37,422 nucleotides of DNA from NCBI GenBank assembly GCA_964468615.1, contig CAYXVH010000258.1, forward strand, positions 1-37,422, given 5' to 3'. The position numbers were made by a program, and so were the translations under genes. The notes beneath the pieces are model-generated. The model saw only the letters and a program-made list of their open reading frames with translations, was not told the origin of the DNA and ran no database searches. This stretch comes from an uncultured Thiotrichales bacterium (GTDB lineage: Bacteria; Pseudomonadota; Gammaproteobacteria; UBA4575). Below are positions 14,635-29,922 of this stretch, piece after piece. How positions within the stretch are numbered: the stretch's first letter is position 1; each line of letters opens with the position of its first letter.

Positions 14635-15081
14635 ATGAAAAAAACACAACAAGGTTTTACCTTAATCGAACTCATGATCGTTGTAGCGATCATCGGTATT
14701 CTTGCAGCGATTGCTATTCCTGCTTATCAGGATTACACCATTCGCGCGAAAGTATCTGAAGCGGTTTTAGCTGCAGCACCTGCAAAAACTTCAATTTCAG
14801 AATTTTTCATCTCAAATGATTCAATGCCTGCTGATGAAGCTGAAGCTGGATTTTCTCCAAATATGGATACTAAATACGTAAACTCTGTAACACTTGCTGC
14901 AACGACTGCTACAACTGCTACCTTACGTGTATCAATTAAAGATCTTGGCGGCACAACAGCCAACGACCAAGAGCTTGAATTGTTTGGCCAAGAAAACAAC
15001 GCAGCTGTTGAATGGGATTGCAGAACATCAGGTGGTACACCGATTCCTGCTAAGTATTTACCTGCAGACTGCAGAAACTAA
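14635..15081 (+). CDS. pilA: Type IVa major pilin
   Basis: The start [32 protein letters not shown] has a short class III leader, a Gly-Phe cleavage site and Glu5. The C-terminal Cys129...Cys146 pair forms the disulfide loop. A GGAG SD precedes the ATG. Confidence 0.93.
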
Positions 15082-15114
15082 ATCTATAGTTTAATCTACT
15101 ATATTTTTATTAAA

Positions 15115-15147
15115 AACGCTCCACGATTTCGTGGGGCGTTTTTTTTT
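15115..15147 (+). terminator. Rho-independent terminator of pilA
   Basis: AACGCTCCACG (15115-15125) pairs with CGTGGGGCGTT (15130-15140), giving an 11-bp stem with one G.U, a 4-nt loop and a run of 9 T (15139-15147). Confidence 0.85.
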
Positions 15148-15153
15148 GCATAG

Positions 15154-27283: not shown

Positions 27284-28560
27284 GTTTTTCTAAAAAAATA
27301 TTAAGCCATTGCGATTTAGGGTTTCAGATATTCGCACTTCGCATTCTAGGCATTTCATTAGCATATTTGAATATCCTAATTCTTGCGAATAAATTAAGCA
27401 TTAATCAATTTGGTATATATGCTTCTGTTCTAGCATTGTCTTCAATAATTGCCGTTATCCTAGATTTGGGCTGCTCTGGCCTTAGTATGAGGAATGTCCC
27501 TCGTTTGCAAAGCAAGGAGCAAAAGAAATACTTAGTATTTCACTATACTAGAATAATTATTTTTTCAAGCGCTTGTATGTTCGTATTAGGTATGCTTTTT
27601 AGTTATAAGAACTTATTAAACAATGAAGTTATTTTCGTGATGTTAATTGCTTTGTTGACTTCATTGTTGCGTTTTGGTGAAACAGTCTTAAAAAGTATTG
27701 AAATTCAGAGATGGTCAATTTTTGTGGGCGGCGTTTTACCGCATTTAATTACAATTACTTTTTATATAGCTTTACCTCTAGATCTAACCATCGTTTTAAT
27801 ACTTGTGACCTCATCAATAATATTGTCTAGCACTCTAACATTTATACTAATTAGAAGAGAGTTCGTGGATACCAATAGCAATAATTTCGAATTTAATGCA
27901 ACAGAGATAAAGGCGCGCGATGTAGTAAGCACGCATTATGACCATTTATCATATGTAATTTTGACATTAACTATGTCTTTATTTCATAGCGGAGTTATCC
28001 CTTTTTTACGTGGTATGGAAGCATTAAAAGAAGCAGCAATTTTAGCAATTTCACTAAAAGTGATTGTGCCCTTCAATGCGGCAAGATCAGCATTAATATC
28101 TGAAAACACACCCAAGGTTTTAGCACTGCTTGCAAATGATAATCAATATGAATTACAAAAAGTTATCGCTAAAGCCTCTAAGTCTTTAAGAAAATATGGA
28201 TTGTCTATATTTTTGCTTACCTGTATTTATGCATACATAACAGAACATGTTTTGCCGGATACATATTCTGGCATTATGTTATATATGATAATAATTGGGG
28301 TAGGCCAATCTGCATCACTTTGTTTGGGTTTTCACCAAGCCTTACATGCCTCATTTGATTTAAAGTTGCGTCTTATTTCATTGCTTTTAATGTTATTATT
28401 ATTATCTGTAATGTATGTCGCAATATATATTTTTGGTAACGATGTATTATATGTTCATATAATTGTTTCCATAGTTTTATTTCTAAAGTTTTTAATTTCG
28501 TATTTTATTGGTAAATATGGTTTGAAATTGAGTTGCGTCAATCGTAACAATAAAATTTAA
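27280..28560 (+). CDS. Polytopic membrane protein, Wzx-like (MOP superfamily) oligosaccharide flippase
   Basis: 426-aa very hydrophobic ORF with about 10-12 predicted helices. The N-terminal LRILGISLAYLNILILANKLSINQFGIYA resembles the polysaccharide-biosynthesis (Wzx) family N-terminus. A Wzy-type polymerase cannot be excluded. Confidence 0.55.
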   Translation: MSFSKKILSHCDLGFQIFALRILGISLAYLNILILANKLSINQFGIYASVLALSSIIAVILDLGCSGLSMRNVPRLQSKEQKKYLVFHYTRIIIFSSACMFVLGMLFSYKNLLNNEVIFVMLIALLTSLLRFGETVLKSIEIQRWSIFVGGVLPHLITITFYIALPLDLTIVLILVTSSIILSSTLTFILIRREFVDTNSNNFEFNATEIKARDVVSTHYDHLSYVILTLTMSLFHSGVIPFLRGMEALKEAAILAISLKVIVPFNAARSALISENTPKVLALLANDNQYELQKVIAKASKSLRKYGLSIFLLTCIYAYITEHVLPDTYSGIMLYMIIIGVGQSASLCLGFHQALHASFDLKLRLISLLLMLLLLSVMYVAIYIFGNDVLYVHIIVSIVLFLKFLISYFIGKYGLKLSCVNRNNKI

Positions 28561-28616
28561 ATAGATCTTCTTAAATACTTAGACCTAATATATATTAATT
28601 ATCAATAAATACTCCT

Positions 28617-28850
28617 ATGCTAGTGGTGATCCACAATGTTATATGTTTTCTATCGCAAATTTACTTGAGAAAAATGATTACCACTTGTTTATCAACACAT
28701 TCAGATGAAGCGACTGTTGATTTGTTGAAAGAATTGAACACGCCTGCTTACAAGGCAACTTCAGCCGTCAATAAAATTAAAGCAAATATTGTAGGGGTGG
28801 CTAGATTCGTTGCAAATTACGTTTCAATCACTAAATCAGTACGTGAATAG
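28617..28850 (+). pseudogene. Relic of a third NeuB/PseI-family gene (internal fragment)
   Basis: By eye, the frame encodes ...IYLRKMITTCLSTHSDEATVDLLKELNTPAYKATSAVNKIKANIVGVA...SITKS, which aligns with PseI residues ...[49 protein letters not shown]...ISTGL. Signature residues are degraded (KIAS to KATS, STG to ITK). The fragment is truncated at both ends and overlaps the GT4 start. Confidence 0.5.
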
Positions 28851-29922
28851 CAAAACCATTCTAATAACTGCAGGTCTAAGTGATTATAAACTAAAGACCA
28901 AAATAATAGGATTGGTTGAAAATGACCTCATAGAGAATATAATTTTAGTTAGAAAAAACGAGCTCAAAAACACAGAAAAAATTACTAATATATCGCCACC
29001 ATTAGGCATAAAAAATATAAGTGTATTATTCGAAATTTGGAGACTTTTAACTCTTATAAGAGTATCCAGATCACGCAACATTGATGCCATTATAGGTATA
29101 CAACTAGTAGCCCACGGTATTTCTGCCGTTATTGCAGGGAAACTTACAAACACTCATTGTGTTGCCTGCCCAATAGGAAAAGATATTCACAGCTACATTA
29201 ATAAATTTATTTATTTATTTCCAATAAAGTGGTGTATAAAAAATGCGAGCATGATTGCCTTCATGGGCCCGAAATCTGAAGAAATTCTACTTGAACAAAA
29301 TACCCCAAAAAGAAAACTGATTGAATTTAAAAATTATCATGACCCTAATCTATTTAAAATTGATAATAAACCACAGCGTCACGATTGGGATTTCATTTAC
29401 ATTGGCCAGCTTATCAAACGTAAAAATTTAGATGTAATTATTCATGCAACCCATAAAGTACACAAAAAATACCCAAACGTTAAATTTGCGATAGTTGGAG
29501 ATGGCCCGAATAAGATTAAGTTAGAGAGATTATGTAAATCACTAAAACTAACAAGAAATATAAAATTTTTAGGATTAAGAAATGATGTAAATGCTCTCCT
29601 AAACACTTCACGCGTATTTATCTTAGCATCAGAAATAGAGGCTTTACCTGCTGCTGCTATTGAGGCAATGCATTGCGGCGTCCCATCTATACTAACTGAC
29701 GTTTGCGATATACCTGGTGTCTTTATTCAAGAATACAATGCACTGCTAATTCCGCCCTATAATATAGATGCACTAGCAGGAGAAATGATACGTTTATGTA
29801 CAGATACAAATCTATATTATAAATTACAAAAAGGGTGTTTAAATTCTCGCGAAAAATATCAAACCAATTGGGGTTTAGAAAATCAAATTCTTGCATGGAA
29901 CAGATTGTTAACTTTAAAATAA
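28810..29922 (+). CDS. Family 4 (GT-B) glycosyltransferase
   Basis: The C-terminal half has GT4 hallmarks: FIYIGQLIKRKN, FAIVGDGP, FLG, and the E-x7-E region SEIEALPAAAIEAMHCGVP. The start is uncertain, either TTG at 28810 or in-frame GTG at 28843 (MNSKTILITAG). Confidence 0.8.
   Translation: MQITFQSLNQYVNSKTILITAGLSDYKLKTKIIGLVENDLIENIILVRKNELKNTEKITNISPPLGIKNISVLFEIWRLLTLIRVSRSRNIDAIIGIQLVAHGISAVIAGKLTNTHCVACPIGKDIHSYINKFIYLFPIKWCIKNASMIAFMGPKSEEILLEQNTPKRKLIEFKNYHDPNLFKIDNKPQRHDWDFIYIGQLIKRKNLDVIIHATHKVHKKYPNVKFAIVGDGPNKIKLERLCKSLKLTRNIKFLGLRNDVNALLNTSRVFILASEIEALPAAAIEAMHCGVPSILTDVCDIPGVFIQEYNALLIPPYNIDALAGEMIRLCTDTNLYYKLQKGCLNSREKYQTNWGLENQILAWNRLLTLK

Follow-up and report, generated by a model that had tools for sequence, protein, structure and literature searches.

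Pilin glycosylation is known from a few pathogens, where it matters for phage resistance, immune evasion, and the engineering of glycoconjugate vaccines. The pilin of Pseudomonas aeruginosa 1244 carries a trisaccharide containing pseudaminic acid (Pse) borrowed from the O-antigen, and a residue resembling Pse or legionaminic acid (Leg) has been found on a Moraxella pilin-like protein. In P. aeruginosa group IV strains (Pa5196/PA7), the pilin arabinosyltransferase TfpW uses a polyprenyl-phosphate-linked donor, and tfpW homologs accompany pilA in several genera; a partner from glycosyltransferase family 2 (GT2) and variable cargo are not described there (bioRxiv 10.1101/2020.04.19.049825). Here, we analyzed a 37,422-bp window, the complete contig CAYXVH010000258.1 from an uncultured gammaproteobacterial metagenome-assembled genome (MAG), in which a 15-kb island of glycan biosynthesis genes separates the type IV pilus genes pilA and pilB. 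All functional statements below are in silico, and their genome scope is this one contig.

The genes pilS-pilR-pilA and pilB-pilC-pilD-coaE-zapD are on the + strand, and between them lie 12 + strand open reading frames (ORFs) and a PseI-like relic. This order and strand, first described in a first-pass annotation made by reading the sequence, were confirmed by ORF listing, Pfam, and NCBIfam. The island encodes, in order, a GT-C protein with tetratricopeptide repeats (TPRs) that we call ORF650, a GT2, a DUF354 protein, PseB, PseC, a NeuB-like protein, PseF, a PseG-GNAT fusion, PseI, a 462-amino-acid (462-aa) protein, a Wzx-like protein, and a GT4. Our leading, still tentative reading is that this island is dedicated to O-glycosylation of the pilin, that it pairs a conserved core with variable cargo, and that a Pse-capped, polyprenyl-phosphate-linked oligosaccharide would be flipped and then moved by the GT-C enzyme. 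The components of this reading differ in strength. Gene identities, the GT-C fold, the linkage to pilA, and the variability come directly from the analysis, and the state of the lipid carrier (monophosphate or diphosphate), transfer en bloc, the acceptor site, and the biological role are inferred. Comparative genomics supports the pilin well as the target of the island, and the GT-C/GT2 core very probably acts on it. The Pse glycan probably ends on the pilin as well, and it is possible, on a guarded view, that this glycan arrives en bloc from a monophosphate carrier via the GT-C enzyme.

The pilA-linked GT-C and GT2 core

We compared the window proteins with 84 nonredundant loci of Gamma- and Betaproteobacteria, which take in Acinetobacter, Undibacterium, Novimethylophilus, Dokdonella, Rhodanobacter, Solimonas, Gallionella, and Methylococcales. 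Upstream DNA was sufficient in 69 loci, and 62 of these have a pilin gene no more than 1.2 kb ahead of the GT-C gene. An ortholog of the GT2 was found in 64 of 73 loci and is directly downstream in 46 of these. Across relatives, the GT2 (52 to 65% identity) is far better conserved than the GT-C protein (28 to 36%). The conserved core is pilA, followed by the GT-C/TPR gene and then by the gene for a polyprenyl-phosphate-sugar synthase, and the Pse block is one variant of the variable cargo on this core. The linkage to pilA, the frequency of the GT2, and the relatives described below support the proposal of the first-pass annotation that a pilin glycosylation island here joins a polyprenyl-phosphate-sugar/GT-C module to a nonulosonic acid module. 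Two or three tandem GT-C/TPR paralogs occur in 32 of the 84 loci, often with two pilins and a single GT2 (L011, L021, L024, L035, L053, L054, L064, L070, L074, and others); such paralogs may be site- or pilin-specific transferases or may act in stepwise periplasmic addition.

The ORF650 family is large, with 1,489 matches among the candidates scored and at least 599 confirmed matches when GTDB is sampled at one genome per species. A profile of the N-terminal domain alone recovered 9,940 clusters (50% identity) at E ≤ 1e-30, although no Pfam-A or NCBIfam model covers it, and in NCBI its members go by “hypothetical” or “tetratricopeptide repeat protein.” Within Acinetobacter alone, many species carry the GT-C protein.

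ORF650 (positions 15154 to 17106, + strand; 650 aa) consists of a membrane domain with a GT-C fold (residues ~1 to 415) and a C-terminal TPR domain (~430 to 650), based on AlphaFold (AF2), Foldseek, and a TPR profile. Its N-terminal 420 residues gave no match in Pfam or NCBIfam or to PDB sequences. The AF2 model of the full protein, built on 24 homologs, had a predicted local distance difference test score (pLDDT) of 87 and a predicted template modeling score of 0.85, and the N-domain modeled alone had a pLDDT of 86. All Foldseek matches to the N-domain with probability 1.00 were GT-C enzymes (AglB, STT3A/B, yeast Stt3, PglB, ArnT, Pmt1, and Pmt4), with template modeling scores of 0.52 for AglB, 0.49 to 0.52 for STT3A/B, 0.48 for PglB, 0.41 to 0.42 for ArnT, and 0.36 to 0.39 for Pmt1/4 and modest E values of 1e-3 to 0.4. 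Searching with the full-length model returned mixed TPR matches and weak GT-C matches. The TPR domain was also recovered from the family profile, which matched consensus TPR proteins at 1e-25 over residues 445 to 650.

In the 24-sequence alignment, D34-D35 (within FHFDDYPNI, first loop), R69-P70, K199-E200, and EHRNY at residues 360 to 364 are invariant. The DD, (SY)RP, and KE(T) motifs of the TMTC O-mannosyltransferases are proposed to bind metal and the donor phosphate (PMC7801869). The DD, RP, and KE of ORF650 correspond to these by position and order, not by joint alignment, and the modeled topology would place the DD loop in the periplasm. None of the 24 family members matched the Pfam families PMT, PMT_2, or TMTC_DUF1736, even at E ≤ 1. 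We propose that ORF650 is a pilin O-glycosyl or oligosaccharyl transferase whose TPR domain probably holds the pilin. JGI names some ORF650 homologs “protein O-mannosyl-transferase.”

The start of the GT2 gene (17103 to 17966, + strand; Pfam Glycos_transf_2, 1e-31) overlaps the stop of ORF650 by 4 nt. Its product, a polyprenyl-phosphate glycosyltransferase of the GtrB/ArnC/DPMS/AglJ-like type, has two C-terminal transmembrane segments. The best NCBIfam matches were to archaeal AglJ (top), PpgS, a dolichyl-phosphate-hexose transferase, and ArnC, all with equivalog scores below the cutoff, and the best PDB matches were all to polyprenyl-phosphate glycosyltransferases (DPMS, 2e-16; ArnC, 2e-12; GtrB, 3e-10). 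We propose that this enzyme makes the lipid-linked donor.

The pilA gene (14635 to 15081, + strand) encodes a 148-aa major pilin of type IVa (Pfam Pilin, 7e-19; N_methyl, 7e-11). A Thr/Ala-rich patch in PilA, which is kept in the relatives L001 and L003, is a candidate site of O-glycosylation. ORF650 starts 73 nt past pilA, beyond a hairpin that resembles an intrinsic terminator (15112 to 15143, + strand; 14-bp stem, then a T run). At other pilA loci, a terminator after the pilin gene lowers expression of the accessory genes (PMC11841053). Inspection by eye found no convincing GG-N10-GC match to a sigma-54 promoter upstream of pilA.

Pseudaminic acid genes and other cargo of the island

The cargo of the window includes a probably complete CMP (cytidine monophosphate)-Pse pathway, judged from profile scores and gene order. 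The genes pseB and pseC (19233 to 21394, + strand) scored 533 bits against TIGR03589 (cutoff, 408) and 572 bits against TIGR03588 (cutoff, 424). Also above their cutoffs were pseG (23163 to 24713, + strand; TIGR03590, 325 bits; cutoff, 154) and the Pse synthase gene pseI (24733 to 25800, + strand; TIGR03586, 477 bits; cutoff, 340). The presumed CMP-Pse synthetase gene pseF (22471 to 23160, + strand) fell just under its cutoff (TIGR03584, 187 bits versus 205.7), with the next-best family at 52 bits. PseG is fused to a GNAT domain (residues 376 to 506), presumed to be PseH, that scored 31.9 bits against the PseH model (cutoff, 93.1). The first-pass annotation had called the pathway complete; we soften this to probably complete, since for the PseH step there are only the weak GNAT match and its position. 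The relatives L089 (6663 to 7304) and L090 (6686 to 7321) encode an unfused PseG and a Formyl_trans_N protein in place of the PseG-GNAT fusion. This formyltransferase-like swap implies variation between strains in N-formyl versus N-acetyl forms of the Pse derivative.

Between pseC and pseF lies a divergent, full-length gene of the NeuB/PseI synthase family (21404 to 22465, + strand). Its product is 30% identical to the PseI of the island and scores below the curated cutoffs for both NeuB and PseI. It could provide a second nonulosonic acid or have some other function. Among the relatives, it is the best-conserved gene of the island (88 to 89%).

Three further soluble proteins are glycosyltransferases or resemble them; like the Pse enzymes, they have no transmembrane segments. 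The DUF354 protein (17976 to 19004, + strand; Pfam DUF354, 5e-17) is probably a cytoplasmic sugar transferase of the GT-B type, a functional assignment that is weak. Its gene follows the GT2 gene in L001, L003, L004, and L006 and adjoins it in L055. The 462-aa protein (25895 to 27283, + strand), which the first-pass annotation left as unknown, has matches to TIGR04396 (3e-27) and, at 83 bits against a curated cutoff of 200, to the BFO_1060 glycosyltransferase family (2e-23). That family includes genetically proven Pse/Leg transferases of Tannerella forsythia (PMC5420450), and the 462-aa protein is probably a CMP-Pse-dependent Pse transferase. The GT4 (28810 to 29922, + strand; Glycos_transf_1, 1e-34) is a cytoplasmic GT-B enzyme. 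Searches of ORF650, the DUF354 protein, and the 462-aa protein against PDB sequences returned nothing useful.

The candidate flippase, a Wzx-like protein of the MOP family (27280 to 28560, + strand), has at least 10 hydrophobic segments and a below-cutoff match to Polysacc_synt (E = 3e-4). Its gene start overlaps the stop of the putative Pse transferase gene by 4 nt. Only 6 homologs were detectable among 5.8 billion proteins, 2 of them with PF01943. Four could be placed on contigs, and all four contigs also bear a close GT-C homolog; the three that could be read are pilA-pilB islands. Flippase candidates differ by locus: Wzx-like in the window, L005, and L013, an MsbA-like ABC exporter in Acinetobacter tianfuensis (L040, 12723 to 14444), and an LPG_synthase_TM “flippase-like” protein in L004 and L007.

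On either side of the GT4 gene are traces of rearrangement. The 77-codon ORF upstream (28617 to 28850, + strand) is a PseI/NeuB-family relic, 35% identical over positions ~28662 to 28772 to residues 104 to 140 of PseI. The first-pass annotation had already read it as a NeuB relic, and it is real though weak (28.9 bits, versus a best score of 22.3 in 200 shuffles). In the spacer between the GT4 gene and pilB, an apparent inverted relic of the 3′ end of the Wzx-like gene (30045 to 30131, − strand) forms a 51-nt inverted repeat with 28477 to 28527, and its tblastn alignment (41% over 34 aa) contains an internal stop; the evidence is weak. In the relative L089, the GT4 gene instead stands ahead of pseB. 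The bracketing of the GT4 gene by the two relics and its relocation in L089 suggest that the GT4 cassette moved by recombination.

The relatives compared share the sucCD-pilSR left flank, and the Pse block lies between pilA and pilB, with small variations, in all three close relatives with a readable interval (GT-C proteins 58 to 78% identical). This interval comparison, which the first-pass annotation had called for, counters the view that relatives carry the block unlinked to pil genes. L003/L088 (GT-C identity, 62%) carries the genes of the window in unchanged order, and a short ORF stands at the position of the relic. L001/L089 (78%) adds AsnB, has the GT4 gene ahead of pseB, and encodes the unfused PseG and the formyltransferase-like protein, and L090 (58%) resembles it in having the latter two and no PseG-GNAT fusion. 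In L004 (47%), there are no Pse genes, and AsnB, methyltransferases, and an oxidoreductase follow the DUF354 protein. In L088, the island most similar to that of the window, pilB was called as fragments of 119 aa and 50 aa (13152 to 14884), which reflects either real disruption or frameshift errors of long reads.

Farther afield, a census of naive ORF calls by top Pfam family covered 105 ORFs that lie 3′ of the GT2 gene, drawn from 25 other loci. It counted 17 GT4s, 14 extra GT2s, 13 methyltransferases, 7 epimerase/dehydratases, 5 Wzx-type flippases, 4 UDP-GlcNAc 2-epimerases, 4 AsnB proteins, and 3 DegT aminotransferases. One Burkholderiales locus encodes a GT4, two GT2s, a Wzx-like protein, a GDP-heptose pathway, and a NeuB-family synthase, and the Acinetobacter tianfuensis locus encodes an ABC exporter, a GT4, a methyltransferase, and GDP-sugar dehydratases. 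Since pilA-pilB islands of 7 to 15 kb are common outside Pseudomonas, the size of the window island is not in itself exceptional; the window ranks among the largest examples of its locus class, which is widespread and which we did not find described in the literature searched.

Pilus genes flank the island on both sides. Upstream of pilA are pilS (11347 to 12969, + strand; Pfam 6TM_PilS/HisKA/HATPase_c) and pilR (12972 to 14333, + strand; Pfam Response_reg/Sigma54_activat/HTH_8), a flank conserved in L001, L003, L004, L006, and L007. Downstream are pilB-pilC-pilD (30509 to 34380, + strand; T2SSE, T2SSF, and Peptidase_A24), with pilB at 30509 to 32227. The outer flanks hold housekeeping genes, namely, clpB, rluD, bamD, nadE, and sucDC on the left and a NUDIX/ThiE fusion and argJ on the right. 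G+C content is 0.31 to 0.34 at 15 to 19 kb and 24 to 30 kb versus ~0.38 to 0.43 in the flanks. Among mobile-element signatures, we found no tRNA and no long flanking direct repeats, and the one inverted repeat is the 51-nt pair around the GT4 gene. A discrete integrative element was rejected because the flanks are syntenic in relatives.

Proposed assembly and target of the glycan

In the pathway that we favor, the GT2 would load undecaprenyl phosphate (Und-P) with the first sugar at the cytoplasmic face, replacing the missing initiating phosphoglycosyltransferase. The DUF354 protein, the GT4, and the 462-aa BFO_1060-type enzyme would lengthen the lipid-linked sugar, and the last of these would cap it with Pse from CMP-Pse, the product of PseB/C/H/G/I/F. 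The dedicated Wzx-like protein would then flip the short glycan, and the GT-C/TPR enzyme would move it to Ser/Thr of periplasmic PilA, perhaps in the Thr/Ala-rich patch. Within the locus, the GT2 is the sole enzyme able to start a lipid-linked glycan, the Wzx-like protein is the sole flippase candidate, and the GT-C/TPR protein is the sole periplasmic transferase. The globular part of the pilin is periplasmic. The soluble transferases lack transmembrane segments and use nucleotide sugars and should therefore act in the cytoplasm on a lipid-linked intermediate rather than on the pilin. The likely benefit, by analogy, would be a pilus masked from pilus-specific phages or grazers. We suggest a role in phage evasion because of the strain-level variability of the cargo and because of work on TfpO and TfpW, in which pilin glycosylation protects against pilus-specific phages (bioRxiv 10.1101/150227).

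Several points weigh against this pathway. The evidence on the GT-C family is wholly computational, and the closest characterized relatives of ORF650 by motif (TMTC/PMT) and context (TfpW, ArnT, and GtrC) take polyprenyl-phosphate-monosaccharide donors. Bacterial Wzx flippases are known for units linked to undecaprenyl diphosphate (Und-PP), and the assignments of Wzx and PseH here are weak. No GT2 ortholog was recognizable within 10 kb in nine loci that do hold GT-C genes and cargo. The glycan could also be started by a housekeeping WecA encoded off this contig, as for many O-antigen loci. Because the window is a single 37-kb MAG contig, unlinked genes for PglL/TfpO, WaaL, flagellin, or Maf may lie elsewhere in the genome, and the island may not be as self-contained as the first-pass annotation proposed.

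Such points are brought together in the main alternative, that two pathways are split. The GT2 and GT-C enzyme would add one sugar (or a homopolymer, as TfpW does) to the pilin, and a Pse oligosaccharide would be built on Und-PP by the products of the Pse genes, the DUF354 protein, the GT4, the 462-aa protein, and the Wzx-like protein, having been started by an unlinked WecA/PglC-type enzyme, and transferred to the pilin by an unlinked enzyme of the PglL/TfpO type. A monosaccharide donor is indeed suggested by the TMTC-like motifs and the GT2 partner, Und-PP units are the classical substrates of Wzx flippases, and P. aeruginosa 1244 attaches its Pse-containing unit via TfpO. Both types of transferase can coexist: in three Undibacterium loci (L005, 7324 to 8907; L042; L047), pilA has a divergent Wzy_C/PglL-like gene upstream, in addition to the GT-C and GT2 genes of the locus, and there two kinds of pilin-modifying enzyme may operate together. 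We nevertheless consider the split unlikely. Initiating transferases of the WecA and WcaJ types were found by tblastn neither in the window nor in the ~88 loci, in searches with single WecA and WcaJ queries that very divergent initiating enzymes can escape. The Undibacterium genes are the only Wzy_C (PglL-like) genes in the ~88 loci, although cargo with GT4 and Wzx is common. No ORF of ≥40 aa in the island encodes a small GtrA/ArnEF-type flippase, such as would serve an Und-P-linked sugar.

More generally, the 37-kb window lacks an initiating phosphoglycosyltransferase, Wzy, Wzz, a Wzy_C-type transferase, flagellin, and Maf, absences that the first-pass annotation had listed and that Pfam, NCBIfam, and tblastn bore out; Pfam and NCBIfam likewise found no capsule or O-antigen export or ligase gene in the window. 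A Wzy-dependent O-antigen or capsule locus was accordingly ranked low, as there is no initiating phosphoglycosyltransferase, Wzy, Wzz, or export system. The same absences bear on the idea that the Pse block makes a single-unit glycan for lipopolysaccharide (LPS) (a rough-type O unit), capsule, or general protein O-glycosylation and that the pilA-pilB interval is a recombination hot spot. Pse is classical in O-antigens and capsules, and the low G+C content of the island arms and the relics and rearrangements near the GT4 gene attest to gene flux. Yet all three relatives read keep the block within the pil interval, glycan cargo occupies this place in every other locus of the class, and the Wzx-like protein, without a detectable homolog in other loci, is accompanied by no Wzy, Wzz, ligase, or export gene, so that we regard this idea as quite improbable. 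We give very little credence to the GT-C/TPR enzyme acting on another periplasmic substrate (LPS, polysaccharide, or other proteins), with its position after pilA reflecting co-regulation only. The N-domain superfamily is very large, as the cluster count above attests, and must include members with other substrates, but pilA is upstream in 62 of 69 loci spanning two classes of Proteobacteria, also in loci where pilins and GT-C genes come in pairs, and the position equals that of TfpW, which glycosylates pilin. That the Pse pathway serves flagellin glycosylation is barely credible. Although the flagellins of Campylobacter, Helicobacter, Aeromonas, and Shewanella typically bear Pse, the window has no flagellin, Maf, or FlmG-type gene, flagellin is glycosylated in the cytoplasm without any need for Wzx, and in T. 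forsythia the substrate of the family to which the putative Pse transferase belongs is a lipid-linked glycan.

Comparison with described systems

TfpW is the obvious precedent for the GT-C/TPR enzyme, a link that the first-pass annotation did not make. We likened ORF650 to TfpW (PA7, AAM52060.1) by published description of position, design, and motif. Both are encoded directly after pilA, are ~650 aa long, and join a GT-C domain with a DD motif (DDx, first periplasmic loop) to a large C-terminal periplasmic TPR domain; PA7 TfpW is not among the matches listed for ORF650 or its Acinetobacter tianfuensis homolog. In contrast to TfpW, which has the motif YX6PFX7P in periplasmic loop 4, ORF650 and all 124 GT-C homologs in the fetched loci lack this motif; the family instead has the EHRNY that is invariant in the 24-sequence alignment. 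The donor module also differs, being a GtrB/ArnC-like GT2 rather than the DprE1/DprE2/DPPR D-arabinofuranose pathway of TfpW, and the window locus adds soluble glycosyltransferases, Wzx, and the Pse pathway. D-Arabinofuranose genes (DPPR synthase/DprE1/DprE2) are absent from the window, and none are listed for the nine loci that lack a GT2 ortholog.

The eukaryotic TMTC1-4/PMT enzymes offer a parallel in architecture, with an N-terminal GT-C domain followed by C-terminal TPRs, DD in the first luminal loop, RP, and a donor-phosphate-binding KE (PMC7801869). They O-glycosylate Ser/Thr from a polyprenyl-phosphate-sugar made by a DPM1-type GT2. Unlike these, ORF650 is bacterial and pilin linked, accompanies oligosaccharide-building genes, and matches none of the Pfam models PMT, PMT_2, and TMTC_DUF1736. 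Three-component systems (GtrA/GtrB/GtrC, ArnC/ArnEF/ArnT, and the pentofuranose systems of PMC11127046) share the Und-P-loading GT2 and the periplasmic GT-C. The acceptor here would be a protein, however, not O-antigen or lipid A, and the window has a Wzx-like protein instead of a small flippase and several soluble glycosyltransferases.

TfpO/PilO, PglL, and TfpM also O-glycosylate pilins, tfpO and tfpM adjoin the pilin gene, the glycan may hold pseudaminic or legionaminic acid, and it protects against phages. These Wzy_C-family enzymes borrow Und-PP-linked O-antigen or capsule units, whereas the window has no Wzy_C gene and its glycan genes lie inside the pil locus. For the 462-aa protein, the nearest described enzymes are Tanf_01245/TFUB4_00887 of T. 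forsythia (BFO_1060 family), with which it shares the family match and the proximity of its gene to a Pse pathway. The T. forsythia enzyme adds terminal Pse to a glycan later placed on proteins (PMC5420450). It comes from another phylum and serves another acceptor glycan, and the score of the 462-aa protein is under the curated cutoff.

Our searches of the literature on pilin glycosylation with Pse, GT-C enzymes, or pilin islands turned up only the work on TfpW, Neisseria pgl, TfpO/TfpM, and cyanobacterial Ogt. We found no Pse pathway in a pil locus with a GT-C/GT2 core, in agreement with the first-pass annotation, which offered no type IV pilus precedent for this combination of modules. The pilA-linked GT-C and GT2 core with swappable sugar cargo is widespread and unannotated, occurring in at least ~600 GTDB species, among them culturable Acinetobacter, Undibacterium, Dokdonella, Rhodanobacter, Solimonas, and Novimethylophilus. 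The system would also allow the question whether enzymes like TfpW truly are oligosaccharyltransferases to be tested in genetically tractable hosts. If the favored pathway holds, environmental Proteobacteria would diversify their pili much as they do O-antigens, and a GT-C enzyme that takes complex nonulosonic acid glycans from a monophosphate carrier to a protein would add a new type to the O-oligosaccharyltransferases, one that could serve glycoengineering.

Functionally, the island resembles the N-glycosylation system of Haloferax volcanii, the parts of which are AglJ, AglG/I/E, AglR, and AglB, rather than the bacterial PglL/TfpO route. The two share a GT2 that acts on polyprenyl monophosphate, soluble extending enzymes, a Wzx-like flippase, and a GT-C enzyme that moves an oligosaccharide; AglJ is the best NCBIfam match of the GT2, and AglB is the top structural match of the ORF650 N-domain. 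The Agl system is archaeal and N-linked, and AglB is an STT3-type enzyme without TPRs, so the analogy is one of function, not of membership. On a view that we advance only as a doubtful but consequential extension, the island would represent a further class of O-oligosaccharyltransferase system after PglL, TfpO/PglS, and TfpM. Assembly on Und-P would be started by a GtrB-like GT2 without a phosphoglycosyltransferase and followed by flipping by Wzx and en bloc transfer to pilin by a TMTC/TfpW-like GT-C-TPR enzyme, with hypervariable cargo that counters phages. Such a class would span hundreds of gamma- and betaproteobacterial species, including Acinetobacter, and would be the bacterial counterpart of Agl.

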